The notes beneath the pieces were generated by a model. The model was not told the DNA's origin. It saw only the letters and a program-made list of their open reading frames with translations, and searched no databases. Shown piece by piece: positions 3,388 to 62,850 of a stretch of DNA of 64,000 nucleotides. The DNA comes from Verrucomicrobiota bacterium. Lineage in GTDB: Bacteria; Verrucomicrobiota; Verrucomicrobiia; Chthoniobacterales; JAFAMB01. A program made the position numbers and the translations under genes. Position 1 is the stretch's first letter. Every line of letters starts with the position of its first letter. The stretch spans positions 13,265 through 77,264 of the forward strand of contig JAFBAP010000159.1 in NCBI GenBank assembly GCA_019247695.1. Direction: 5' to 3'.

Positions 3388-3832
3388 GGGACGGGTGGCG
3401 GGTGGCGTTCCGAGTTCGGGGTTCGGTCGCACAGCGGGCACAACGTAAGAGTTCACACGGCGAACACGGCGGGCCACGGCGAACACGGCGGGAAGAGGAA
3501 AGAGTTCGGAGTTCGGAGTTCGGGGCTCGGCGTTCGGAGCGGCAGCATGGGGGCCGGTTGCCGGTGTCAAGCTCCGGTTTCGTGGATTTTTTCTGCGTTC
3601 TTCTGCGTGTTCTGCGGATCATTTCGTTTTCCCGCCGGGTGAGCGTGCGCCTCGGGGGAGATCGGACCCGGTTCTACGACGCCTCCGAACCCCGAACTCC
3701 GAACTCCGAACCCCGAACTCTCTCCCCCTCTTCCCGCCGTGTTCGCCGTGGCCCGCCGTGTTCGCCGTGTGAACTCAGTCGTTGTGCCCGCCGTGTGACC
3801 GAACCCCGAACTCCACCCGCCGCCCCTTCTAA
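3388..3832. repeat. modular palindromic intergenic element (word-repeat family A) with ~150-nt inverted arms
   Basis: Left arm ~3393-3542 and right arm ~3682-3826 are reverse complements. The ~140-nt loop carries 'ttttttctgcgttcttctgcgtgttctgcgg' (3587-3617). The same modules recur at 39660-39950, 43165-43612 and 62484-62850. Confidence 0.9.
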
Positions 3833-3835
3833 CTC

Positions 3836-4516: not shown

Positions 4517-6087
4517 CGACGACCGCAAAAGCCGATTACGGTATCGTGATCGCCGGCCACGGCAGCCGCGATCCCGAAGGCGTGCTCGATTTCGAGGGGC
4601 TCGTCCGCCTGATCAAACGACGCGTGCCCGGGCAACAGCACGTTACCCATGGGTACCTCGAGTTTGCCCGGCCGACGATCGCGGAAGCAGTCCGGGCCAA
4701 CATCGCCGCCGGTTCACGCAAGCTGAGCATCGTGCCGGCGGTGCTCCTGGCGGCGACTCACGCCAAGAATGATCTGCCCAGCGAAGTACTCGCCCTCCGG
4801 CGTGAATTCCCGGAAGTCGGGATTCATTATGGCGCACCCCTGCACCTGCACCCGCTGGTCCTGCGGCTCTTTCGGGAACGGATCATCCAGGCCGAAGCGC
4901 AAAGCTCCTCGGTCGTTAAACGCGCCGAAACGTGTCTGGTGGTGGTTGGCCGCGGCACCACCGATCCGGACGCAAATTCAGACGTGTCAAAGCTGGCCCG
5001 CATGCTCGAGGAAGGGCTCGGTCTCGGTGCGTCGTTCGTCTGCTATGCCGGAACGGCGCGCCCGTCGGTCGCCGAAGGACTTCGGCTGGCGGCTCGACTC
5101 GGCCTTCCGAGGATCGTGGTAGCCCCGTTCCTGCTGTTTACCGGGGTGTTGTTGAAGCGGGTCCACGCGGCGGCGGACGAATTGGCGCAGCGGTCCCGGG
5201 GCCACGAGGTGCTCAAATGCGATCCGCTGGGGGCCGATAGTCACCTGGCCGACGCGTTCCTGGAGCGGGCGGCGGAAAGCGTTGAAGGCATGGCGGCCAT
5301 GAATTGCAGCCTTTGCAAATACCGGGTGCAGATCATCGGGTACGAACAGGAAGTCGGAACGCCCCAGCGCGGGCACCATTTTCACGTGCGCGCCGGTGCC
5401 GCCGACGAGCGGCCCGAAAAAGCGGGCCCGCAATTTGAGCTGCACCCGATTGAACGGAAGAGCTTCGAAATCATCGCGGCGGCACGTGACTGGTCAACCT
5501 TTCCTGAAGCTGAACGCGACGTGCTGAAACGCCTCGTGCACACCACCGGCGATACCGGCATCGTGGAAGACGTGTTTATTTCTGCCGGCGCACTTGAGGC
5601 GGGTCTTCGCGCCCTGGCGAGGCGCTGCCCGATCGCCACGGACGTCACGATGGTACAAAGCGGGCTGCGCCGGACCCTGCTCGAGCGGTTTGGCATCGAG
5701 ACATTTTGCGCAGTCCACGACGAGGAAACCCGGCTGCTTGCTGCGGCGACAGGCTGCACCCGTTCAGCCGCGGGTATCCGCCGCGCCTGGGAAAGGTTCG
5801 GGAATGAGACCGTGCTGGCGATCGGTGACGCGCCCACGGCCGTGGAGGAAACCGTGCGCCTGGTCCGGGAACACCGTTGGCGTCCGCAACTCGTGATCGG
5901 GCTGCCGGTCGGGTTCGTCGGCACCCGCGAGTGCAAAGACCAACTCCGTCGCTGCGTGCATATCCCCCGGATCACGAACCGCGGCACCCGCGGCGGATCA
6001 CCCTGGGCTGCCGCCGTGGTGAACGCCTTGCTGATCCGGTTGGCCGCCACCAGGAACGGAGCGGAGAATCGAGCGGTAAACCGATGA
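4513..6087 (+). CDS. cbiX-cbiC: fusion protein: long-form sirohydrochlorin cobaltochelatase CbiX plus precorrin-8X methylmutase CbiC/CobH
   Basis: The N-terminal half has two CbiX repeats ('[12 protein letters not shown]', '[10 protein letters not shown]', '[15 protein letters not shown]') and a Cys motif 'MNCSLCKY'. The C-terminal ~210 aa carry '[10 protein letters not shown]', 'IGDAPTAV', '[10 protein letters not shown]' and '[13 protein letters not shown]', typical of CbiC. Confidence 0.8.
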
Positions 6088-7217
6088 AGGTGATGAACGC
6101 GCTCGATCTGTCCATCCTTGCCGAAAACGGGTTACGCCGCGGGTTCACCACCGGGTCCTGCGCGACGGCGGCGGTGAAAGCGGCGCTGTTGAAATTACTC
6201 TGCGGTGAGCTTACCGGGCGGGTAAACGTCACTTTGCCGGACGGCGAATTTTATCTGACGATTCCGATTGAAAGCGTGTACGACGAACCGGACGGCTGGG
6301 TGCGGGCAACCGTGATCAAGGACGCAGGCGACGATCCGGACCAGACCCATCGGGCCAGGATTTTTGCCCGTGTTCGATCCAATTCCAGCGGCCGGGTCAT
6401 CTTTCGGCGTGGCGAAGGCGTTGGGATCGTGACCCAGCCGGGCCTGGCGGTGCCGGTAGGCGAACCGGCTATCAATCCGGCCCCCCGGAAGATGATTTTG
6501 CGGGCGGTCCAGGAAGTGCTGGCCGAAGGCGATAGCATTGGCCCGTCAGGTTACGACGTTGAGATCGGTTGTGAAAATGGAGCCGAAATCGCCCGCCGCA
6601 CGTTTAACCCGCGTCTCGGGATCGAGGGCGGCATCTCGATCCTCGGCACCACCGGGGTCGTCGAGCCGAAATCAATGGCGGCCTTCAAAGCGTCGATCGA
6701 GACCTATATCCGCGTGGCGCTCGGGGATAACCCGCCCGAAATCGTGCTTGCGCCCGGAAACATCGGACAACGCTTCGCCCGCGCCACGCTTGATGCGCCG
6801 CTTAAGCGGGTCGTGCAGATGTCGAACTTCGTCGGGTTCGCCCTGGACTGCGTCGAGCGCACGCTCCTGGAAAACGGGCAACGGCTCCCCCGTCTGTGGA
6901 TCGTCGGGCACCCGGGCAAGCTCGCGAAGGTTCTTGACGGTGTTTGGGATACGCACTCGCAGCGGAGCGAGAGCGCGGTAAGGCCGGTTCGCCGGATCGC
7001 GGGGGCGTGCGGGTTCACCGCCGAAGAGTGCGCGCGTTTTCAGGCCTCAAGAACGGTGGAGGGAATCATCGAATCCCTGGCCGGTGACGAGCGGGCGCCC
7101 GCTTTCTGGCGCGAGGTTGAGACCCGGATCGCCGCCGCCATAGGCCCGAAGCTGTCCACGGTGGACCGCGTCTGCGTGCGGATTTTTACCCTGGACGGGA
7201 AGGAACTCGGAGGCTGA
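6084..7217 (+). CDS. cbiD: cobalt-precorrin-5B (C1)-methyltransferase CbiD
   Basis: ATGA overlap with the previous gene. 'LRRGFTTGSCATAAVKAA', 'VIKDAGDDPDQTH', 'GISILGTTGVVEP'. Confidence 0.85.
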   Translation: MKVMNALDLSILAENGLRRGFTTGSCATAAVKAALLKLLCGELTGRVNVTLPDGEFYLTIPIESVYDEPDGWVRATVIKDAGDDPDQTHRARIFARVRSNSSGRVIFRRGEGVGIVTQPGLAVPVGEPAINPAPRKMILRAVQEVLAEGDSIGPSGYDVEIGCENGAEIARRTFNPRLGIEGGISILGTTGVVEPKSMAAFKASIETYIRVALGDNPPEIVLAPGNIGQRFARATLDAPLKRVVQMSNFVGFALDCVERTLLENGQRLPRLWIVGHPGKLAKVLDGVWDTHSQRSESAVRPVRRIAGACGFTAEECARFQASRTVEGIIESLAGDERAPAFWREVETRIAAAIGPKLSTVDRVCVRIFTLDGKELGG

Positions 7218-7219
7218 CC

Positions 7220-7957
7220 ATGGAACACCTGGGCACATTTTATGGAATCGGCGTCGGGCCGGGCGAACCCGGGCTCATCACGCTGGCGGCGTGGGAAGCG
7301 TTGCAACGGTGCGACGTGATCTTCACTCCGCGCGCGCAATCCGCCTCTGCGTCCGCCGCTCGAAACTGCCTTCCGCCGCACGCGATCCCGGACAAACGGT
7401 TCCGCGAAATCGAGTTCCGCATGGACCCGGATCGCGAAGTCTTGCGCGAATTTTATACGCTCCTGGCGGGGCAGATCGCGGCCGAACTGCGCGCCGGACG
7501 CAACGCCGGGTACCTGACGCTCGGCGACCCGCTCACCTACTCGACCTACGGTTACACGCTCGCAGCCCTTCGCGGCTGCCTGCCGCAACTCCGGCACCGG
7601 ACATTTCCCGGCATCACCAGTTATTGCGCGCTCGCCGCCGCGACCGACTGGCCCCTGGGCGAAGGCAAGGAACGGGTGCTGATCCTGCCGTGTCCCGAAT
7701 CGATGATCGAGCTGCGCCATGCCATTGAGGAAAATGACATCGTCGTGCTCATGAAGATCGGCGGGCGCCTGCCGTCGGTCCTGGAGCTCTTACGCCAACT
7801 GGGCATCGCCGAGCACTGCGCCTTCGGCCGGCATGTCGGCATGCAAAAGGAATTCATCGCCCGGCAGGCGCACGAACTCGAGGCCGTTTCCGAGAACCAC
7901 GGTTACCTTGCCACGATGCTGATCCGCAAAACGCCGCCGGTAAATCGCCATGCTTGA
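7220..7957 (+). CDS. cbiL: cobalt-factor II / precorrin-2 C20-methyltransferase CbiL/CobI
   Basis: 'FYGIGVGPGEPGLITL', 'YLTLGDPLTYSTY', 'FPGITSYCA'. Confidence 0.8.
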   Translation: MEHLGTFYGIGVGPGEPGLITLAAWEALQRCDVIFTPRAQSASASAARNCLPPHAIPDKRFREIEFRMDPDREVLREFYTLLAGQIAAELRAGRNAGYLTLGDPLTYSTYGYTLAALRGCLPQLRHRTFPGITSYCALAAATDWPLGEGKERVLILPCPESMIELRHAIEENDIVVLMKIGGRLPSVLELLRQLGIAEHCAFGRHVGMQKEFIARQAHELEAVSENHGYLATMLIRKTPPVNRHA

Positions 7958-8750
7958 ACCAAAGGTTCGTCCTGATCCGAAAGTCTATTTCATCGGCGCC
8001 GGTCCCGGCGCGGCGGATCTGATCACGATCCGCGGCGCGGAAATCCTGCGGCGGGTTCCGCTCGTGCTCTATGCGGGTTCGCTCGTCAGCCGCGACCTCC
8101 TGGTGCATTGCCGGCCGGACGCGGAAATCATCGACACGTCGCGCCTGACGCTCGACGAACAGGAGGCGCACTACGTGCGTGCGTCCGCCCAAGGCCTGGA
8201 GGTCGCCCGGCTGCATTCGGGTGATCCGTCGATTTATGGTGCGACGGCGGAACAAATGCGGCGCCTGGACCGGCTCGGGATCGAGTACGAAGTTGTTCCC
8301 GGCGTCTCTTCGTTCACCGCCGCCGCGGCCGTCCTGAAGGCGGAACTGACCAAGCCGCACGTCTCTCAAACCGTGATCCTCACCCGCACGGCGGGTCGGG
8401 CGTCCCCCGTACCGGAACGCGAGCTGCTCAACCTGCTCGCCGCTCACGGGGCGACGCTCTGCATTTTTCTATCCGGGGCAAAACTGCCCGCCGTAGTGCG
8501 CGAACTGGAGGGCAATTACCCGCCGGACACGCCGGTTGCCCTGGTGCAGAAGGCGACCTGGCCGCAACAGCGCGTTTACGAGGGAAAACTCGGTACCGTC
8601 CTGGAGTCAATCGACGAACAGGAGTGGCAGCTCTCGACCTTGATGATCGTGGGCGAGGTCCTTTCGCACGAGGCCATGCAGGAATCGCGCCTTTACTCGG
8701 CCGATTACGCGCACCGTTTCCGCGGGAAGAAACCACGGCAACCAAAATGA
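7950..8750 (+). CDS. cbiF: cobalt-precorrin-4 / precorrin-4 C11-methyltransferase CbiF/CobM
   Basis: 'VYFIGAGPGAADLITIRG', 'VLYAGSLV', 'RLHSGDPSIYGA', 'VPGVSSFTAAAA'. It overlaps cbiL by 8 nt. Confidence 0.85.
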   Translation: MLEPKVRPDPKVYFIGAGPGAADLITIRGAEILRRVPLVLYAGSLVSRDLLVHCRPDAEIIDTSRLTLDEQEAHYVRASAQGLEVARLHSGDPSIYGATAEQMRRLDRLGIEYEVVPGVSSFTAAAAVLKAELTKPHVSQTVILTRTAGRASPVPERELLNLLAAHGATLCIFLSGAKLPAVVRELEGNYPPDTPVALVQKATWPQQRVYEGKLGTVLESIDEQEWQLSTLMIVGEVLSHEAMQESRLYSADYAHRFRGKKPRQPK

Positions 8751-9559
8751 GTTCGACCGGTATCTGGATAGTCAGAGCTGAAGCCGAGGCGCTCGGCAGC
8801 CGCCTGGCCGCTGCGCTCGGCGCGCGGCTTTACCGGCCCCAGCCGGATGCAGGCGTCTCGAACCGGCTGCGGTTTGCGGGGGAGTTCCGAACGTGCCGTC
8901 AATGGGTATTGGTGATGGCCAGCGGCATTGCCGTGCGCTACCTGCAAGGACTCGCCTGCGACAAGCGCACCGACCCCGCCGTGGTGGTGCTCGATGAGGC
9001 CGCGCGATTTGCGGTTCCGCTCCTCTCCGGACACGAGGGAGGCGCAAACCGGCTGGCGTATGCCGTCGCCAATCTTACCGGCGCGATCCCGGTGATCACC
9101 ACTGCGACGGAAGCCTTGAAGCCGCTGATCGTCGGCCTGGGGTGCCGGCGCGGCGTTTCCGTTGAGCAGATCGATGAGGCCGTTAACGCCGGTCTGGCCC
9201 GGGCGCATCGATCCCTGGCCGAGGTGCGTGAACTGGCCACGCTCGATCTGAAAGCGGACGAACCCGCGCTGTGCGATTGGTGCCGGCGCTTCGACGTCCC
9301 CATGCGGATAATCGGCAAGAGCTCCATCCAGGCACGCCCGTGGGTGAACAAGCCATCCGCCTGGGTACAGGCCAACGCCGGCGTGGACGGCGTATGCGAA
9401 CCGTGCGCCCTGGTGGCGGCGGTTCGTGGCCGGCTCATTCTGCCGAAAACCGCATTTAACGGCGTTGCCGTCGCGATCGTCGATGACGGCTTTGAGGCCG
9501 GGTCCCTGATGCCGGTCTTACCCCTTCACCCAACTGCACTGCCGGATCCCGGAGTCTAA
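8747..9559 (+). CDS. cbiG: cobalt-precorrin-5A hydrolase CbiG
   Basis: ATGA overlap at 8747-8750. 'VPLLSGHEGGANRLA', 'IVGLGCRRG', 'LATLDLKADEP', 'GVDGVCEPCAL'. Confidence 0.75.
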   Translation: MSSTGIWIVRAEAEALGSRLAAALGARLYRPQPDAGVSNRLRFAGEFRTCRQWVLVMASGIAVRYLQGLACDKRTDPAVVVLDEAARFAVPLLSGHEGGANRLAYAVANLTGAIPVITTATEALKPLIVGLGCRRGVSVEQIDEAVNAGLARAHRSLAEVRELATLDLKADEPALCDWCRRFDVPMRIIGKSSIQARPWVNKPSAWVQANAGVDGVCEPCALVAAVRGRLILPKTAFNGVAVAIVDDGFEAGSLMPVLPLHPTALPDPGV

Positions 9560-9739
9560 CCGCATGAAGGTAAATCCCGCCCCGCAATCCCTCAGTTCAG
9601 GAGTTGACGCTACCCGCGCGCGTGGTTCGGAGACCGTCTTATGCCATTTAAACCGTTATTTCGGCAACATATCGGCTCAGGGGGCGCCGGCGTCGGATGA
9701 TGCTCCGCACCCTGGTGAATCGGTCTTAGACCCAACGGG

Positions 9740-10300
9740 CCGGCAGAACCTAGCCCAGGGTTCCACCCTGGGAACCGCCCCTCATCCCGGTCGAGGCCTG
9801 AAGGGCCGGCAGAAGGCGTTTGCTACCTTTCTACCGCCCTTTCAGGGCTCAACGGCGTGGAGGATCCTTTTCCAGGGTAACCCCCCCTGCAATTTAGTTA
9901 AGGGCGGCAGGCCGGGCGTGGCCTTCGTCCCGGAGGGACGGCTGAGGTTAGGCAGGTACTTTAGTGCCTGTACCTGTGCGGGCGTTCCCCAGCGGTTGCG
10001 TCCCCTCGGGACGCCTGAAGCGGCGCGCCGGGCCAGGCGGGCATCAAAGGTGGGGAGACCTTCGGGTTTTTGGCGCCGAGGGTCGCGCCGGGTTTGGCCG
10101 GCCGCTTGGGAGTCGGAATCCTCCCGGGCAGCGTTTCAGGCGTCCCGACGGGACGCGATCCCTCTTAAATGCCCCCTCCAGGGACTGAAGTCCCTGGCTA
10201 CGATCAAGGGTCCCTGCGGGACGAAAGCGCCCCCATCCGCCGGCCTTGTATCCTTAACTAAATGGCAGTGGGGTTTACCCTGGGCTAAGTTCCCACGCCC
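9740..10300. repeat. nested imperfect palindrome made of REP-like hairpin units (GTCCC-N3-GGGAC, CCCAGGG-N5-CCCTGGG)
   Basis: Inverted pairs 9872-9939 / 10210-10283 and 9998-10022 / 10132-10156 share one symmetry centre near 10075. Four GTCCCnnnGGGAC hairpins are present. Neither this unit nor this pattern was seen elsewhere in the window. Confidence 0.85.
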
Positions 10301-10363
10301 CTTTGGGGCTAATATCCAGCATAAAAGTATTGTTGAGGCCCAAGCCAGGAAGGCGGGCGCCCG

Positions 10364-12028
10364 ATGAGTGCGGAAAATCACTCGAATTCCGGGCTTCACT
10401 CCGGAAATCCCGACGGCGCCCACGGCAAACTTTATCTCGTTTCCGTCGGTCCCGGTTTTCGCGAGTTGATTCCGCCGCTGGCCGAAGCGGCCTTGCGGAG
10501 CAGTGACGCCATCGTCGGGTACGACTTGTACCTGCGCTGGATCGGCGACTGGACGGCAGGCAAAGAAGTCCATACCCTGCCGCTCACGAAAGAAAAGGAA
10601 CGTGCCGCGCGTGCCATCGAAATGGCGCGAGCCGGCCGTTGCGTCAGCCTTGTGTCGAGCGGCGACGTCGGAATCTACGGCATGGCGGCGCTGGCCCTCG
10701 AGTTAATGGAGGAATCCGACGTTTTCGAGGTCGCGGTTGTGCCCGGCATCTCCGCGGCGAACAGTTGCGCATCCCTGCTCGGGTCGCCGCTGTCGCACGA
10801 TTACGCCACGCTCTCCCTTTCAGACCTGCTGTGTCCTTGGGAATGGATCGAGCAGCGCGCCCGGCAACTCGCGCGGGCGGACCTGGTCGTCGCGCTTTAC
10901 AATGTGCAGAGCCGCCAGCGCCGCGACGGCATTTACCGGGTACTGCGGCTGTTCAGGGAGCACAAGGCGCCCGGCACCTGGTGCGGCGTGGTTCGCAACG
11001 CTTACCGCGAAGATCAACAAATTTCGATCTGCACGCTGGAAGAACTCGCCGGACGCGCGTTCGACATGCTGACCACGATCATCGTCGGCAACCGTTTCAC
11101 CCGGCGCAAACGGCAGTTCCTGTACACGCCGCGCGGTTACCAGGCGTGGTCCGAAACCACAGCCGAACCCCCTGCCGCGTTCCCTCGAGGAAGCGTCTGG
11201 GTTTTCTCGGGCACAAGCGACGGCAACCAGCTTGCAAACGCCCTGGTCCGGGCCGGCTACCGCGTGGTCGTGTCGGTGGCATCCGGCTACGGGCGCGAAA
11301 CCGCAGCCGGCGCGGTGCCCGGAGCTGTGGTGCGATCCGGGCCGGTGGGGCCGGAAGTGCGCCGGCGCGAGTTGGTCGAGTCGGCGGCGGGGTCGGTAGT
11401 GGACGCCACCCACCCGTTTGCGGTCCGGATTTCGCAACAACTTATGGCGCTGTGCGAAGACACCGGAATTCCGTACCTGCGGTACGAGCGGCCACCCGCG
11501 CCGAGACCGGCAACTGCGCATTATTGCCGGTCAATGGACGAGGCCGCCCGAGTGGCGGCTCGCCTGGGACAGCGGGTCTTCCTTGCGGTCGGCGTTAAAG
11601 AGTTGGCTGCTTTCGTGGAAGCCCGGAGCGATCGGGACTGGTTCGTGCGCGTCACGCCGGACGCTGCTTCGATCGATCGGGCGGTCAGCCTCGGCGTGCC
11701 GCGGGCGCGGATCTGCGCCATGCAGGGCCCCTTCTCCCGCGCATTCAACGAGGCGCTCTGGGCCGGCTGGCAGATCGATTGCGTGGTTACCAAAGATTCC
11801 GGCGAGGCCGGCGGCTTCAACGCCAAAGCCGAAGCCGCCGCCGTGCTGAAGATCCCGCTGGTGGTCGTCGAGCGGCCCACGCTGCGGTACCCGTTCGTCG
11901 CGCACGATTTTACCGGTATCCTCAAAAGGCTGGACGACCTCGCCTCGGACCAAGCGGCAGGCCTCAGTGCACCGCCTCAAGCCCCGGCCCGCCTTCATCC
12001 CCTTCCACCTTCACTCCCGTCATCATGA
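10364..12028 (+). CDS. cbiH-cbiJ: fusion protein: precorrin-3B C17-methyltransferase CbiH/CobJ plus precorrin-6x reductase CbiJ/CobK
   Basis: The N-terminal half has 'LYLVSVGPGFRELIP', 'VSLVSSGDVGIYGMA' and 'VPGISAANS'. The C-terminal half has 'VWVFSGTSDGNQLA', 'VVDATHPFAVRISQ' and 'VVTKDSGEAGG'. Confidence 0.8.
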   Translation: MSAENHSNSGLHSGNPDGAHGKLYLVSVGPGFRELIPPLAEAALRSSDAIVGYDLYLRWIGDWTAGKEVHTLPLTKEKERAARAIEMARAGRCVSLVSSGDVGIYGMAALALELMEESDVFEVAVVPGISAANSCASLLGSPLSHDYATLSLSDLLCPWEWIEQRARQLARADLVVALYNVQSRQRRDGIYRVLRLFREHKAPGTWCGVVRNAYREDQQISICTLEELAGRAFDMLTTIIVGNRFTRRKRQFLYTPRGYQAWSETTAEPPAAFPRGSVWVFSGTSDGNQLANALVRAGYRVVVSVASGYGRETAAGAVPGAVVRSGPVGPEVRRRELVESAAGSVVDATHPFAVRISQQLMALCEDTGIPYLRYERPPAPRPATAHYCRSMDEAARVAARLGQRVFLAVGVKELAAFVEARSDRDWFVRVTPDAASIDRAVSLGVPRARICAMQGPFSRAFNEALWAGWQIDCVVTKDSGEAGGFNAKAEAAAVLKIPLVVVERPTLRYPFVAHDFTGILKRLDDLASDQAAGLSAPPQAPARLHPLPPSLPSS

Positions 12029-16926: not shown

Positions 16927-18636
16927 ATGGATGCTACGCTCCGTTTCCCATTTGTGGCCATCGTCGGAATGGACCTGGCAAAAAGATCGCTGATCTATCA
17001 CGCGATCGACCCGCGGATCGGTGGGGTGCTGCTGCTCGGGCCGCGGGGGAGCGCCAAGACCACGCTCGCCCGCGGCGCGGCCGAATTGTTTAGCACGGCG
17101 CAGGGCGAGCCGGCACCATTTGTCGAGGTCCCGCTCGGAACGACGGAGGATCGCCTGCTCGGTTCCGTGGACGCCGAAGCCCTGGTCGAAGCGGGCCGCT
17201 GGTCGCACCGGCCCGGGCTGCTGGAACAGGCCAACCAGGGGTTGCTCTACATCGACGAAATCAACCTGCTGCCCGATCCCTTGTCCGACCTCCTGCTGGA
17301 CTCCGCCGCAACCGGGTTCCACCGCGTTGAGCGCGAGGGATTCAGCCGCACCGTCGAGAGCCGTTACGTCCTGGTCGGAACCATGAACCCGGATGAGGGC
17401 GATTTACGGCCGCAACTCGCGGACCGGTTTGCGCACGGGGTGCGCATTCAAACGCAATGGACGGAACCGGAACGCGTCGAGATCGTGGCGCGCCGGATGG
17501 AATTTGACGACGCGCCGGGGCCGTTCCTGGAGCGTTTTGCTGAACCGGCCCGGGCGCTCAGCGCCCGTATTCGCGAGGCGCGTAAAGCCGTTCGTTCCGT
17601 AACGATCACCGACGCCCAAAGGCGATCGGTTGCCCAACGCGCCGGCCAATTGCGGCTCGAGGGTCTCCGCGCCGAACTGGCCGTGCTGCGAACCGCGCGC
17701 TCCGCGGCCGCTTTCCAGGGCCGGCGGGAACTGTCCCCCGGCGATCTCGAGGAAGCGTGGGAACTCTGTCTGGGGCACCGGGAGCATCCGGACCGTCCCG
17801 GCACGGCGCCCCCCCCGCGGCCGCCCTCGCATTCCGAAAAGAGCAGTTTCCGGCAAACCGGCCCCGCAACCTCGATCTTGCCGGCTGAAGCCCGCCCTGA
17901 GCCGATCACCTTACCGCCACCGAGGCCGGACGGCCATGCCGGTTTGCAGGACTGGTTCACCACGGCGGTCGCCTTTAGCCGTCGCATGCGCCGTGCCCGG
18001 TGTCCCGGTCCGGCCGAAGGGACCACGCGGGGATCGATCAACTGGATCGCCTCACTTCTCGCCACGCGAATCCGGGCCGGTTCGCAGAAAAAGCCGCGCC
18101 GTTGGGTGTTGCGGACCCGAACTGCCGGACGCCGGACCGGTGTCTGGATCTTTCTGGACGCCAGCCGCTCAACCGGGGTCGGGCATTTCCTCCAGCGCGC
18201 CTGCGGACGGCTTGTTCCCGTGGTAAAATCAAAGGCCGGCCTCGGGGTTCGATTTCACGTCCTGCTGCTGCATGACGGCGCCACGCGGTGGCTCGTCCGA
18301 GACGGGTCCGCGACACGCACCCAAAGCCGGCTGCTTACCTTGGGCCAGGCCGCCGGTAAAAGTCGCCTGACCGAGGCGTTGAACGCGCTGCGGCGAACGC
18401 AGCACCGGCGGCGCGACGCCGGATACGATCCGTTGATTATCCTCTCCGACGGTTTTCTCAGCCCGCGGCCGGGGGAAAACCCGGGTCGGGCCGTGCAACG
18501 CTTCCGCACTATGCTGGTATCCCTGACCGCAAAACGTAAAACGGCATGGCTGCATCCCGTGCCTAAACGCAGCGCGGCAACCTGGTTGCCGCGTCTCACG
18601 GCCGGATGCGACGTGCAGCCTTATGAAATCCGGTGA
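16927..18636 (+). CDS. chelatase ATPase subunit, ChlI/ChlD-type fusion (AAA+ domain, Pro-rich linker, vWA domain); probable CobN partner
   Basis: Walker A 'LLGPRGSAKTT', 'LLYIDEINLL', 'VGTMNPDEGDLRPQLADRF', linker 'PGTAPPPRPPSH', and a vWA/MIDAS-like 'VWIFLDASRSTG'. Confidence 0.75.
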   Translation: MDATLRFPFVAIVGMDLAKRSLIYHAIDPRIGGVLLLGPRGSAKTTLARGAAELFSTAQGEPAPFVEVPLGTTEDRLLGSVDAEALVEAGRWSHRPGLLEQANQGLLYIDEINLLPDPLSDLLLDSAATGFHRVEREGFSRTVESRYVLVGTMNPDEGDLRPQLADRFAHGVRIQTQWTEPERVEIVARRMEFDDAPGPFLERFAEPARALSARIREARKAVRSVTITDAQRRSVAQRAGQLRLEGLRAELAVLRTARSAAAFQGRRELSPGDLEEAWELCLGHREHPDRPGTAPPPRPPSHSEKSSFRQTGPATSILPAEARPEPITLPPPRPDGHAGLQDWFTTAVAFSRRMRRARCPGPAEGTTRGSINWIASLLATRIRAGSQKKPRRWVLRTRTAGRRTGVWIFLDASRSTGVGHFLQRACGRLVPVVKSKAGLGVRFHVLLLHDGATRWLVRDGSATRTQSRLLTLGQAAGKSRLTEALNALRRTQHRRRDAGYDPLIILSDGFLSPRPGENPGRAVQRFRTMLVSLTAKRKTAWLHPVPKRSAATWLPRLTAGCDVQPYEIR

Positions 18637-20548: not shown

Positions 20549-20721
20549 GATCGCTGATCTATCACGCGATCGACCCGCGGATCGGTGGGGTGCTGCTGCT
20601 CGGGCCGCGGGGGAGCGCCAAGGCCACGCTCGCCCGCGGCGCGGCCGAATCGTTTAGCACGGCGCAGGGCGAGCCGGATGGAATTTGACGACGCGCCAGG
20701 GCCGTTCCCGGAGCGTTTTGC
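20549..20721 (+). pseudogene. ghost fragment of the ChlI/D-type chelatase gene (copy of 16985-17113 joined to 17497-17540)
   Basis: There is a near-identical nucleotide match (a handful of substitutions) to two non-adjacent pieces of the 16927..18636 gene, joined at a shared 'gccgg'. No complete reading frame remains. Confidence 0.85.
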
Positions 20722-21477: not shown

Positions 21478-21741
21478 TCAGGCCAGGGTGGCGGTCGCCT
21501 TTCGCGGCAATGGCACCGCCCAGGCCAGCGTGGCGGTCGCCTTCCGCGGCAATGGCACCGCCCAGGCCAGCGTGGCGGTCGCCTTTCGCGGCAATGGCAC
21601 CGCCCAGGCCAGCGTGGTTGACTCTACGCGCGGGTGCCATGCTCCTGCCTCAGCTCCCGGTTTGGAGGATGCCGTGAATGGCGCCAAGCTGGGGTGGATG
21701 GCGGAAACCGCAACGATAAGAATGAGAATGGTCTTTTTCAT
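21478..21741 (-). CDS. possible small secreted protein with three 14-aa tandem repeats (TLAWAVPLPRKATA)
   Basis: The ATG at 21741 is preceded by 'aagaggggga' (SD-like). The N-terminus 'MKKTILILIVAVSAIHPSLA' looks like a signal peptide. The repeat period is 42 bp (14 codons). There are competing ORFs on the + strand, so coding status is uncertain. Confidence 0.35.
   Translation of the reverse strand: MKKTILILIVAVSAIHPSLAPFTASSKPGAEAGAWHPRVESTTLAWAVPLPRKATATLAWAVPLPRKATATLAWAVPLPRKATATLA
21479..21617. repeat. 42-bp tandem direct repeat, 3.3 copies
   Basis: The units at 21479-21520, 21521-21562 and 21563-21604 differ by 1-2 nt ('caggccagcgtggcggtcgcctttcgcggcaatggcaccgcc'). A partial fourth unit runs to 21617. 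Confidence 0.95.
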
Positions 21742-28490: not shown

Positions 28491-28731
28491 ACTCAGTAAC
28501 GGGTAACGGGTAACGGGTAATGGGTAACGGGTAACGGGTAATGCGTAACGGATAATGGGTGCGGTTCGCCGTTCGCCGTCTACCCTTAAGCTGTGTCCGG
28601 CGGTGCAATCTGTGGATGATTCTTCTTTTCTGCGTGTTCTGCGGCTGATTTCTGCCTTTCTGCGGATCCGCCGCGTGATCGAACCCGCTACCCGCTACCC
28701 GTTACGCGTTACCGGTTACCGGTGACTGAGT
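28491..28731. repeat. palindromic element with GTAACGG heptamer arms (word-repeat family B) and a TTCTGCG core
   Basis: The left arm 'actcagtaacgggtaacgggtaacgggtaatgggtaacgggtaacgggtaatgcgtaacgg' is inverted at 28676-28731 ('cccgctacccgctacccgttacgcgttaccggttaccggtgactgagt'). The core 'cttttctgcgtgttctgcggctgatttctgcctttctgcgg' is shared with family A. Confidence 0.9.
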
Positions 28732-39660: not shown

Positions 39661-39950
39661 CGTCACACGGCGGGCACAGCGGGTTTGGCGGGCACGACGT
39701 AAGAGTTCACACGGCGAACACGGCGAGCCACGGCGGGAAGAGGAAAGCCAGCAGGGAGGGCGGGCTGGTCAGGCACGCCGAGAATCTACGCCGTCTTTGC
39801 CGGGAGCCGAATTCGGGGCCGCACGTCGGCTGCCGGGTAACTTTGTCTTCCCGCCGTGTTCGCCGTGGCTCGCCGTGTTCGCCGTGTGAACTCAGTCGTT
39901 GTGCCCGCCGTGTGACCGTGTGAACCACAGTCGTCGTGGCCGCCACACCC
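39660..39950. repeat. modular palindromic intergenic element (family A)
   Basis: Left arm 39663-39746 and right arm 39846-39948. Within the right arm, the segment 'cttcccgccgtgttcgccgtggctcgccgtgttcgccgtgtgaactcagtcgttgtgcccgccgtgtgaccg' differs by 1 nt from 3730-3801. Confidence 0.9.
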
Positions 39951-43164: not shown

Positions 43165-43612
43165 GGAAGGCATCCACAGATTAAAGTCACACAGTGGCCA
43201 CGGAGAGAAAACAGAATCATCCGCAGAACACGCAGACAACGCAGAAAAGAGAAAACATCCACAGATTACACAGATTGACACGGATTAAGGGCACACGGCA
43301 GCCGCAACGTACGAGTTCACACGGCGCCACGACGGAACACGGCGACCACGGTGGGAAGCCATGCCGCCCGGCGCCTCTTCATTTGTGGCATTTTTCCGCT
43401 TGTGGCATTTGTGGCATTCTCTTCCGCTCCGAACCCCGAACTCCGAACTCCGAACTCCGAACTCTTTCCCCCCCTTCTTCCCGCCGTGGTCGCCGTGGCC
43501 CGCCGTGGTCGCCGTGTGAACTCTTGCGTCGTGCCCGCCAAACCCGCCGTGTGACCGACACCCGACACCCGGCACTCGGCACCCGACACCGTTCCGTCAT
43601 TTGTGGCATTTT
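43165..43612. repeat. modular palindromic intergenic element (family A, largest composite)
   Basis: It contains the CACAGATT, reversed TTCTGCG ('ccgcagaacacgcagacaacgcagaaaag'), CACGGCG, TTGTGGCAT (43377-43421), CGAACTC x4, GTGGTCGCC and CGACACC (43556-43590) word blocks. Confidence 0.9.
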
Positions 43613-47629: not shown

Positions 47630-47712
47630 CAACCAGGTAACCGGTCCCGGCGAATCGCCGGTTAACCGTTACCCGTTACCCGTTACGAGGTACCCGTTAC
47701 GGCCGGTTAACC
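47615..47712. repeat. GTAACGG-word palindromic element (family B) between convergent mtgA and atpC
   Basis: 'accggtaacgggtagcaaccaggtaaccggtcccggcgaatcgccggttaaccgttacccgttacccgttacgaggtacccgttacggccggttaacc', with a central hairpin 'ccggcg aat cgccgg'. Confidence 0.85.
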
Positions 47713-56922: not shown

Positions 56923-57131
56923 CGGTAACGCGTAACGAGTAACGGGTAACGGGTGGCGGGTCGAGTAAATGCCGCTCAGGGGTGACTTCGACGGCTCGTG
57001 CGCATGGCGTTGATTCCATACCGGCGGTGAAGCAGTTCTTCCTGGGCTGACGCGCGGCGCTCTCCACCGGGTACAACGTCGGCTTGCGGTCTTCCACCCG
57101 CTATTCGTTACGCGTTACCCGTTACCCGCCC
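56923..57131. repeat. family B element: GTAACGG-word inverted arms around a 134-nt unique core
   Basis: The arms 'cggtaacgcgtaacgagtaacgggtaacgggtggcgggt' (56923-56961) and 'cacccgctattcgttacgcgttacccgttacccgcccc' (57096-57131) lie between convergent stops at 56919 and 57148. Confidence 0.85.
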
Positions 57132-61700: not shown

Positions 61701-62483
61701 GTGAAACTCCTTTTGACCTCAGATTTTCACTTTCACCGGCCATGGTACGACTGGCTTTTAGATCACGGGCCCCAGTACGACCTCGTGGCCATCGCCGGAG
61801 ATTTGATGGAAATGCATTACCCCGGAGGGGTGGTGCCGCAGCTTATTTACCTTCACGGTTGGGTACGGACGATGCTCAAGCGAGGGGCGGTTCTGGCGGT
61901 CTGCTCCGGTAACCACGACCTGCCTTCGACCGCGCCGATGGTCGTGCCGCACCAGGGTATCGATAAAGAACGCGTCGCGCTCCTCGAGGGGTTTGCGAAG
62001 CATGAACATTGGTTGCAGGCCTTGCGCCGCGATCACCAGATCACCGTCGACCAGGACCATCGCATCATTCGCACCAATTCCGGGGAGAGCCTCATGGTAA
62101 GCTGCGCGCCTTACCGCGCCGACGGCCAGTTTTTGTTCCGTGAACATTTCCCGCCCCCCTGGCTCCTGCTGCACCATGAACCGCCCGGGGGCACGACCCT
62201 GGCAGGACCGAATACGGGCAACCAGGCCCTGGCCGAATTCGTCCGAAAAACACCGCCGAAATACGTTTTAAGCGGCCACGCCCATTTCAGCGAATCGGGC
62301 CATAACGCTTTCCATGAGCGTATCGGCAAGGCGCATTGCTTCAACTGCCGCCAATACCCAACGGCCGGTATCCGCCCCCCGGCGCCCAACGTGATTCTTC
62401 TCGACACCGGCGCCGGCACGGCAACCTGGCGCTTCTACACGCAGGACAGCACCCCGCAGCAGGCCGTCGTGGAATTGGACTGA
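61701..62483 (+). CDS. calcineurin-like metallophosphoesterase
   Basis: 'LLTSDFHF', 'VAIAGDLME', 'CSGNHD', 'VLSGHAHF'; GTG start. Confidence 0.7.
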   Translation: MKLLLTSDFHFHRPWYDWLLDHGPQYDLVAIAGDLMEMHYPGGVVPQLIYLHGWVRTMLKRGAVLAVCSGNHDLPSTAPMVVPHQGIDKERVALLEGFAKHEHWLQALRRDHQITVDQDHRIIRTNSGESLMVSCAPYRADGQFLFREHFPPPWLLLHHEPPGGTTLAGPNTGNQALAEFVRKTPPKYVLSGHAHFSESGHNAFHERIGKAHCFNCRQYPTAGIRPPAPNVILLDTGAGTATWRFYTQDSTPQQAVVELD

Positions 62484-62850
62484 GAAAAGAGGAAACATCC
62501 ACAGATTACACAGATTGACACAGATTACGGTCACACGGTCGCACGGCGGACACAGCGGAGAAGAATCACACGGCGCCACGGCGGAACACGGCGACCACGG
62601 CGGGAAGAGGGGGAAAGAGTTCGGAGTTCGGGGCTCGGGGTTCGGAGCGGCAGAGAATGCCACAAATGAAGAGGCGCCGGGTCTGGTAATCTTTTTTCTG
62701 CGTTCTCTGCGTGTTCTGCGGTTGATTCTGTCTTTCCGCCGTGGTCGCCGTGGTCCGCCGTGTTCGCCGTGTGAACTCTTACGTTGCGCCCGCCGTGTGA
62801 CCGTGTGAACTCTTTCGTCGTGCCCGCCACCCTCTTCATTTGTGGCATTT
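62484..62850. repeat. modular palindromic intergenic element (family A) filling the gap between two convergent stop codons exactly
   Basis: Words CACAGATT x3, CACGGCG arms (62531-62617 vs 62733-62808), 'agaatgccacaaatgaagagg' (62654-62674) inverted at 62831-62852, and the core 'cttttttctgcgttctctgcgtgttctgcgg' (62691-62721). Confidence 0.9.

Follow-up and report, generated by a model that had tools for sequence, protein, structure and literature searches.

The 64,000-nt stretch of Chthoniobacterales (Verrucomicrobiota) DNA analysed here, hereafter the window, carries a cbi operon in which 804 nt (positions 9560–10363) separate cbiG from a cbiH-cbiJ fusion gene. This gap is very probably a mosaic of non-autonomous, hairpin-forming repeats of the kind known as repetitive extragenic palindromes (REPs), bacterial interspersed mosaic elements (BIMEs) and REPINs, and not a gene, and nothing in the analysis identifies it as a dedicated regulator. 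At its core lies a pair of three-hairpin units of a type that, in other genomes and metagenomes, flanks genes for small Y1 transposases, and we infer that the element in the window was mobilised by such a transposase. A first-pass annotation of the sequence had described a nested palindrome of ~560 nt in the gap. The palindrome is present and its actual size is 587 nt (9726–10312). Four concentric inverted-repeat pairs are found in the gap, namely 9726–9761 with 10277–10312 (36 nt, 81% complementary), 9850–9915 with 10240–10305 (66 nt, 73%), 9921–9970 with 10179–10228 (50 nt, 76%) and 9980–10031 with 10123–10174 (52 nt, 73%), the last centred at ~10077, in agreement with the common centre near 10075 proposed earlier. 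The window has four occurrences of the motif GTCCC-N3-GGGAC, every one of them within the gap (at 9927, 10000, 10142 and 10210), where four had been noted, with a chance expectation of 0.11 and none of 100 shuffled sequences reaching four. The 23-mer GCGTCCCnnnGGGACGCCTGAAG has three matches (0.02 expected) and the 32-nt outer arm two (0 expected). Folding of the whole gap as RNA yields −422.6 kcal/mol (z = −10.7 versus shuffles), and folding of 9726–10312 as single-stranded DNA yields −174 kcal/mol (z = −10.9).

Alignment of neighbourhoods of the repeat identifies the building block as a module of ~92 nt with three hairpins. The repeated unit is larger than a single REP hairpin. The order of its parts is hpA (GTCCC-nnn-GGGAC), the linker nCTGAnA(A/G)TAG, hpB (CCCGGCG...CGCCGGG or variants), ~20 variable nucleotides, hpA' (GCGTCCC-nnn-GGGACGC) and CTGAA. 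Two type-1 units are present in the gap. The left one (9925..10020, plus strand) comprises hpA at 9927–9939, GGCTGAGGTTAG, hpB at ~9952–9976, hpA' at 9998–10014 and CTGAAG; the right one is inverted (10134..10224, minus strand), with hpA' at 10140–10156, hpB at 10178–10197 and hpA at 10210–10222. An intact type-2 unit, characterized by a GCCC-type hpA and the hpB stem CCCAGGGT/ACCCTGGG, precedes them at 9727..9815 on the plus strand (hpA 9729–9741, GGCAGAACCTAG linker, hpB 9754–9772, hpA' 9795–9807). The hpB hairpins at 9754–9772 and 10178–10197 had been recognized before, with coordinates one base off.

One half of this unit is already represented in Rfam. Read on the opposite strand, the segment made of hpB, CUA, the linker and hpA corresponds to Acido-Lenti-1 (RF01687), which was reported from Acidobacteria and Lentisphaerae as a probable small RNA of unassigned function, with covariation (Weinberg et al. 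2010, PMC2864571). The alignments in the window cover model positions 1–46 with both stems paired (an 8-bp stem, CUA plus a linker of ~12 nt, and a 5-bp stem) and score 35.8 bits at 10178–10223 (plus strand) and 33.7 bits at 9728–9772 (minus strand), with E-values of 1.9e-4 and 7.2e-4 for the whole window against all families. Weaker matches are found at 9926–9971 on the minus strand (22.5 bits) and at 10278–10310 on the plus strand (23.5 bits, hpB counted as deleted). The two best scores fall below the gathering cut-off of 37 bits and related loci reach 37.2–57.7 bits; judging from these alignments, the units of the window are close relatives of Acido-Lenti-1 lying just under the cut-off. Two differences from the published motif stand out: Acido-Lenti-1 makes up only one half of the present DNA repeat, which is found beside Y1 transposase genes, and its range, given in Rfam as Acidobacteria and Lentisphaerae, extends to genomes labelled as other groups. 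When species-representative genomes were scanned with GCGTCCCnnnGGGACGCCTGAA, at least 120 stretches matched; the matches listed are mostly from metagenome-assembled genomes (MAGs) of Acidobacteriota, with others from MAGs labelled Verrucomicrobiota, Anaerolineae, Thermoflexus and Planctomycetota. Overall, the seed motif is found in MAGs labelled Acidobacteriota, Verrucomicrobiota, Chloroflexota and Planctomycetota, the check for full units and Y1 genes having covered some of the loci. Among the matches listed for literature mentioning Acido-Lenti-1, there is no work on REPs or transposases.

The link to transposases emerged from scans that were seeded only with the 20–22-nt hairpin motif and yielded 238 loci (~1.7 Mb; loci are referred to below by L numbers). 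The second of these scans, of metagenomes with the hpB variant of the window (TAGCCAGGGACTnnAGTCCCTGG), added further examples of the gene described next. Clustering of all open reading frames (ORFs) in the fetched loci revealed a protein of ~150 aa adjoining the motif. Its gene, a Y1 gene, occurs beside a unit or the seed motif in 16 of the 238 loci, all of them from other genomes or metagenomes, and in 14 of the 16 the nearest unit lies no more than ~110 nt away. In L088 a unit overlaps the 5' end of the Y1 gene; in L150 only the seed motif is present, ~80 nt upstream. Two inward-facing units with a spacing of 453–603 nt bracket the gene in 13 loci, which provides the flanked Y1 genes that the first-pass annotation had suggested looking for. 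Read base by base, the inverted three-hairpin flanks are evident around the Y1 genes of L096 (3328–3774), L067 (1859–2302), L176 (953–1402) and L203 (1229–1696). On the upstream side hpA'-CTGAA is located 5–25 nt before the start codon, and its mirror image follows one to a few bases past the stop. The protein scores 92.5 bits against Pfam Y1_Tnp and passes the NCBIfam IS200 model (NF033573) at 60–82 bits. Common to all 16 Y1 proteins are the motif Y---Q--HH and, at the C-terminus, a conserved tail that reads FEEEFxxFLxKHxxEYDxxYVWG or varies from it. At the level of motifs, Y---Q--HH matches the signature of TnpA_Y1 subclass 1.2 as that subclass is presented in PMC6006769. A regular expression for the motif of REP-associated tyrosine transposases (RAYTs), H.H...Y..NP, matched none of the ORFs in the loci, because the Y1 proteins are of the Y---Q type.

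Alignment of 22 units flanking Y1 genes reveals compensatory changes in 11 of 16 stem pairs; the hairpin sequences vary by group and the pairing is kept. A tetranucleotide (G/A/T)TAG directly precedes hpB on its 5' side, with the T and G of TAG invariant in all 22 units, and the corresponding heads in the window read GTTAG (9947–9951) and, on the reverse strand, CGTAG. A covariance model (R1) was built from Y1-flanking units only, none of which comes from the lineage of the window. In the window, R1 has three matches, each covering model positions 1–92: 10134–10224 on the minus strand (75.8 bits, E=2.4e-16), 9925–10020 on the plus strand (57.5 bits, E=5.6e-12) and 9727–9815 on the plus strand (26.5 bits, E=1.5e-4). 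Elsewhere in the 64 kb R1 finds nothing better than E=0.6. The two strong matches face inward, as do the units around Y1 genes, but they enclose only 115 nt.

A profile-based census of the fetched loci recovered 321 units in 194 loci, alongside the 16 Y1 genes. Neighbouring units face inward in 69 cases, versus 30, 14 and 14 for the other orientations, and the spacings of inward pairs fall into three classes (3–74, 97–118 and 453–603 nt). Every one of the 13 pairs in the longest class contains a Y1 gene. None of the 17 pairs in the 97–118-nt class does; the pairs of the window and of its family belong to this class, as do those at the cbi junctions of L129 and L130. The inward pair enclosing 115 nt and these spacing classes together mark the element of the window as a gene-less derivative of the arrangement that brackets Y1 genes. 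The centre itself (10021..10133, ~115 nt), which occupies the position of the transposase gene in autonomous relatives, is conserved at 0.88 within the family of the window.

That family is defined by a 413-nt palindromic element (9872..10284), the amplified unit, which sits in the hpB loop of a reversed type-2 unit. The gap was compared by blastn with all 247 other fetched loci, which gives a profile of repeat coverage: repeated DNA spans 9638–10312 and is flanked by unique sequence on both sides. The first part of it, a module at 9638..9726 with 15–21 blastn matches (e.g., L193, L003 6570–6811, L181, L232, L236), accompanies type-2 units elsewhere. The 413-nt core is represented by at least 13 near-full-length copies with consistent ends, 79–90% pairwise identity and a star-like pattern of divergence; the units are consequently not unique to this locus but members of a dispersed family. 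The copies occupy unrelated contexts, such as a type IV pilus/type II secretion system (T2SS) cluster, ABC transporters and hydrolases, in both orientations. Most of them come from the metagenome Ga0213876 and belong to a Verrucomicrobiota (Chthoniobacterales-like) population. One locus is present in two assemblies, as L002 and L232, and an identity of 99.66% over 12.2 kb between them indicates that Ga0213876 holds the population of the window itself. The core is bounded by 32-nt terminal inverted repeats, a left one, CCAGGGTAACCCCCCCTGCAATTTAGTTAAGG, at 9872..9903 on the plus strand (column identity 0.89 across copies) and a right one at 10252..10284 on the minus strand (0.93), with 29 of 32 positions matching between 9872–9903 and the reverse complement of 10252–10283. 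Within the core, hairpins and linkers are conserved at 0.95–1.0 and spacers at 0.74–0.88, and the long-range pairing of the arms is retained in the consensus fold of the copies. The right type-1 hpB (10178–10197) is invariant in 13 of 13 copies. The two arms differ in their hpB, GCAGGTAC...GTGCCTG on the left and CCAGGGACTGAAGTCCCTGG on the right, and since this asymmetry is common to all copies, the element spread as a 413-nt whole.

The position of the element explains the nested palindrome. A mirror-image type-2 unit starts ~10 nt past the intact one and is split in two. Its inner half (9826..9879, minus strand) comprises hpA' at 9836–9848, the spacer and, of hpB, the left half (CCAGGGT), and the same flank is also seen in L148 and L136; its outer half (10277..10312, minus strand) consists of the right half of hpB (ACCCTGGG), the CTAAGTTCCCAC linker and hpA at 10297–10309. 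The 413-nt element occupies precisely the interval between the halves of this hpB stem, a placement shared by 12 of the 13 copies, and uninterrupted type-2 units exist elsewhere (e.g., L002 2198–2287). The palindrome is thus nested because the element sits in the hairpin loop of a second, related doublet. In L173, another inverted pair (GGCGGTGAG / CTCACCGCC) flanks the element, which there occupies the middle of inverted heptamer arrays. A 4-nt loop, TTTA or TAAA, adjoins each end; in about half of the copies the two loops have the same, direct orientation, and in the window, L136 and L173 they are inverted. The placement of the copies points to preferential insertion into hairpin loops. Alternatively, the last 8–9 bp could belong to the element and have changed on both sides.

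Discrete size and ends over at least 13 copies, together with conserved 32-nt terminal repeats, are also what a classical miniature inverted-repeat transposable element (MITE) moved by a DDE transposase would have, in which case the association of the internal hairpins with Y1 genes would be incidental. The loops that are direct in about half of the copies look as a duplicated GGGTTTACCC target would. We nevertheless regard this explanation as very unlikely. The flanks are inverted, not direct, in the window, L136 and L173, those of L173 are the different inverted pair mentioned above, and ORF clustering revealed no DDE transposase with these ends in any locus. Moreover, the internal units align with all 92 positions of the units that flank transposase genes, and they face inward as those do.

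Gene callers annotate the gap as coding in L001, an independent metagenome assembly of the same locus. The 267-aa ORF in question (9564..10367, plus strand) fills the gap exactly, ends in an ATGA overlap with cbiH-J and, in a protein database search, matches four other proteins (E 5e-23 to 3e-5), as would be expected of a genuine gene of the cbi cluster. However, these matches (including P0002–P0004) merely translate further copies of this repeat DNA, some of them on the opposite strand, located in unrelated loci next to a T2SS/type IV pilus cluster, ABC transporters or a hydrolase. The ORF runs through the repeats, has no Pfam family and is not conserved: in the alignment of 13 copies, even the frame with the fewest stops contains at least one stop in 10 of the 12 other copies, indels that are not multiples of three occur in every aligned copy, and substitutions at codon positions 1, 2 and 3 number 271, 236 and 185, with no excess at the third position, the reverse of a coding pattern. 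L129 and L130 have no equivalent ORF. The gap is non-coding, as the first-pass annotation had maintained, and the ORF is spurious and not a gene; the coding interpretation is effectively refuted already and retains almost no probability.

The genes on both sides of the gap are well defined. Pfam matches and gene calls place the end of cbiG (8747..9559, plus strand; CbiG_N and CbiG_C, with a gene call in L001) and the start of the cbiH-cbiJ fusion (10364..12028, plus strand; TP_methylase and CbiJ, with an identical protein on L001) where they had been put before. Other genes of the operon encode CbiD, two corrin methylases, CobW and CobN. Between the repeats and the genes lie two unique spacers, one after the cbiG stop (9560..9637, without a blastn match among the 247 other loci) and one before cbiH-J (10313..10363, without repeat matches), which contains a Shine-Dalgarno-like AGGAAGG and whose sequence is kept in L130. 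L001 carries the locus at 99.6% identity, and since it is an independent assembly, the structure of the gap is not an assembly artefact.

The junction has a different form in more distant organisms. In relatives with 66–67% CbiG identity and the same gene order, cbiG and cbiH-J overlap by 4 nt. Comparison of these junctions shows the insertion to be derived. Among closer relatives (CbiG 82–85%) no empty site was found, and every lineage carries a doublet; L130 and L129 have a simpler inward doublet with the same left/right asymmetry of hpB, with other centres and without the 32-nt ends. The comparison of the cbiG–cbiH junction in relatives that had been suggested earlier thus yields overlaps in the distant ones and doublets in the close ones. 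In the clade of the window, CbiG has ~20 extra C-terminal residues and CbiH-J ~17 extra N-terminal residues relative to L252 (4680–4800), suggesting that the junction (9500–9559 and 10364–10420) was remodelled when the overlap was lost.

The persistence of doublets at this junction raises the question of whether the structure is mainly a functional RNA of the cbi operon, a processing or stability signal or an attenuator, maintained by selection and only secondarily repeat-like. Such an RNA could set the ratio of the genes through cbiG to the downstream cbiH-J, cobW and cobN. Several observations are in line with this possibility: four related lineages (CbiG 82–85%) carry an inward doublet at the junction, with differing centres; hairpins and linkers are more conserved than spacers; the RNA fold is extreme (z = −10.7); Acido-Lenti-1 was judged to be probably an RNA on the basis of its covariation (PMC2864571); and in eight acidobacterial loci a unit lies ~100–150 nt upstream of a gene for B12-dependent ribonucleotide reductase. 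We consider a primarily regulatory origin unlikely, however. The same 413-nt element recurs, in either orientation, at many sites whose gene surroundings are unrelated; the operon has no gap in more distant relatives; and conservation of the hairpins is equally expected if a protein recognizes the DNA. At gathering cut-offs, the Rfam scan of the whole window gave zero hits, with no cobalamin riboswitch or other regulatory family, and in E-value-based scans Acido-Lenti-1 was the sole family to appear. Promoter- and terminator-like sites in 9300–10600 do not exceed chance, and scans of the window for tRNA and tmRNA gave no matches. A regulatory RNA would fit secondary exaptation of a repeat but leaves the family itself unexplained. 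That the junction copy, kept across the clade, was taken over as an mRNA-processing signal is a weaker possibility.

The mosaic of mobile repeats could have arisen as follows. A Y1 transposase encoded elsewhere would recognize the hairpins on single-stranded DNA, cut and rejoin beside them and thereby move doublets, with exposed hairpin loops as favoured targets. Precedents are IS200/IS605 TnpA and TnpA-REP of E. coli, both of which bind hairpins on single-stranded DNA and cut them (background in PMC6006769). At the cbi junction, an insertion would have broken the ancestral 4-nt overlap of cbiG and cbiH-J. The element is probably read through within the operon mRNA, cbiH-J would now be started from its own ribosome-binding site, and the long RNA hairpin may change the processing or stability of the message. 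Given that no promoter or terminator rises above chance and that AGGAAGG precedes cbiH-J, read-through with independent re-initiation is the simplest expectation for this operon.

Several results weigh against such a history. Searches with tblastn and hidden Markov models detected no Y1 gene in the window, none was found in L001–L004 or in ~229 kb of contigs that belong to its population, and comparison of the centre of the element with Y1 genes by blastn-short and blastx shows neither similarity nor a gene remnant. The Y1 protein fails the NCBIfam RAYT model (NF047646), whose cut-off is 80 bits: scores range from 21 to 31.5 bits, and of four proteins tested one has no match to it at all. The copies are 10–21% diverged in a star-like fashion and nothing in them shows current mobility; polymorphism between filled and empty sites was not seen. 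There is no clear target-site signature, the ends of the element may be either CCAGGGT... or ACCCCACTGCC..., and the presence of a doublet at the same junction in all relatives with 82–85% CbiG identity could mean functional retention. The first-pass annotation had itself remarked that no RAYT is present in the window, which is borne out. Its comparison with REP/BIME units mobilised by RAYTs holds in so far as the units flank Y1 genes of the HUH type in 13 loci elsewhere, but the protein is not one that the RAYT model accepts.

The closest known counterparts are the REP/BIME/REPIN–RAYT systems, or REPtrons, of E. coli and Pseudomonas. In both cases GC-rich hairpins are dispersed in intergenic DNA and within operons, a conserved head accompanies the hairpin, GT(A/G)G-like in REPtrons and the tetranucleotide (G/A/T)TAG directly 5' of hpB here, inverted doublets predominate, different unit types form mosaics, and a Y1 HUH gene lies between inverted copies of a repeat that far outnumbers it. 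The differences are also clear. Instead of one hairpin of 20–40 nt, the unit is a three-hairpin module of 92 nt; the amplified unit is 413 nt long and has its own 32-nt terminal repeats; the protein is IS200-like, with Y---Q--HH in place of the Y...NP type that the RAYT model describes; and neither the window nor the sampled contigs of its lineage contain a Y1 gene. With regard to the protein, the motif and the conserved C-terminal extension in 16 of 16 sequences resemble TnpA_Y1 subclass 1.2. In the sections of Quentin et al. 2018 (PMC6006769) on this subclass, it is described as low-copy, without terminal structures of the insertion sequence (IS) type and mostly from Cyanobacteria and Bacteroidetes, and it does not appear there among the REP-flanked subclasses. 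Class 3 of the same authors was considered and rejected, the motifs given for it in those sections being W[TA] and YV..EQ, versus WQ and YI..Q here. TIRtrons (TIRYT) are Y1 genes with long inverted repeats that form moderately abundant dispersed families with dimers and clusters, and an acidobacterial TIRYT group has been described, without mention of Acido-Lenti-1 (Di Nocera et al. 2013, PMC3733652). Identity with that group was likewise rejected, because the proteins listed for it, aba 1552 among them, carry Y...NP, a motif of the RAYT type. IS200/IS605 elements share with the present system a Y1 transposase of ~150 aa that passes NF033573, subterminal hairpins and gene-less derivatives. Their canonical ends are asymmetric, in contrast to the inverted copies of one 92-nt module found here, and units vastly outnumber genes in the sampled loci (321 versus 16). 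An IS200/IS605 element would contain tnpA; the window has no Y1 gene, and the centre of its element is unlike tnpA.

With some reservation, we suggest that the three-hairpin unit, in which Acido-Lenti-1 would be the REP, and the ~150-aa Y---Q--HH protein of subclass 1.2 might constitute a REPtron-like system, absent from the papers searched, whose doublets insert into hairpin loops and build nested palindromes. For the likely local effect of such insertions, the Correia elements of Neisseria and ERIC elements may serve as a model. They are palindromic, inserted in operons and co-transcribed, and form long RNA hairpins that RNase III can cleave; they belong to another sequence family and presumably use another transposition chemistry.

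The survey also brought up unusual arrangements of the repeat. On the Anaerolineae SSC4 chromosome (CP059258), the motif forms tandem arrays in L029 (e.g., 444–1201) and L080 with a period of ~250–480 nt, reaching three per kb, unlike the inverted doublets elsewhere. In L067, four to five units follow one another downstream of the Y1 gene, with a tRNA gene (932–1006) ~330 nt away from them, and this neighbourhood may be a site where repeats cluster. The eight loci with a unit upstream of class II B12-dependent ribonucleotide reductase (L027, L037, L041, L054, L090, L099, L114 and L116) are mostly from Acidobacteriota MAGs; in L037, the unit is at ~5520–5612 and the reductase gene at 5710–7998. 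Orientation and neighbours are conserved among the eight. The repeat has been retained here at orthologous positions and may now serve as a 5' leader.

The GC content of the window is ~62%. The best named matches of its AtpD are from Verrucomicrobia (90% identity) and Chthoniobacterales (86–88%), and those of CbiG come from a mix of phyla (~60–65%). The window also contains other repeats. An unrelated palindrome family built of words or heptamers (GAGTTCG, GTAACGG, CGCCGTGTT and others) occurs at 3388–3835, 39675–39925, 43190–43612, 62480–62850, 28495–28720, 47657–47701 and 56924–57126, and comparison of the two confirmed that the gap family is distinct from it, as had been claimed. One copy, whose arms (3400–3498 and 3727–3825) are 99 nt long and 90% complementary, takes up the interval from a cbiA-like gene to the next methylase gene. 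This repeat (3388–3835) splits the cbi cluster a first time, and that of the cbiG–cbiH-J gap a second time, again in keeping with the earlier description. Fragments of an AAA/Mg-chelatase-like gene (16927..18636) are duplicated ~3.5 kb downstream as direct repeats (16985–17113 versus 20549–20677, 98%; 17487–17540 versus 20668–20721, 94%) in a region where GC content falls from ~0.65 to ~0.58, and a 42-nt tandem repeat with 3.3 copies (96% matches) is located at 21479–21617.

For annotation, a pipeline-called 'gene' of 800 nt in a B12 operon is replaced by a defined repeat mosaic. In all four Logan contigs of a close relative (L125–L128), the assembly ends inside the first unit, ~90 nt past the cbiG stop; the repeats break short-read assemblies, and their abundance in MAGs is probably under-estimated. 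For specialists, the novelty lies in the re-reading of Acido-Lenti-1 and in a repeat partner for the subclass 1.2 proteins. The orphan motif, in Rfam since 2010, is explained as half of an inverted repeat that brackets a small Y1 gene, and the results suggest that this repeat is the partner of the TnpA_Y1 subclass 1.2 proteins. The nesting pattern predicts transposition of single-strand DNA aimed at hairpin loops. By entering operons, the repeats uncouple genes that were translationally coupled, which matters for the reading of operons in MAGs of Verrucomicrobiota and Acidobacteriota.

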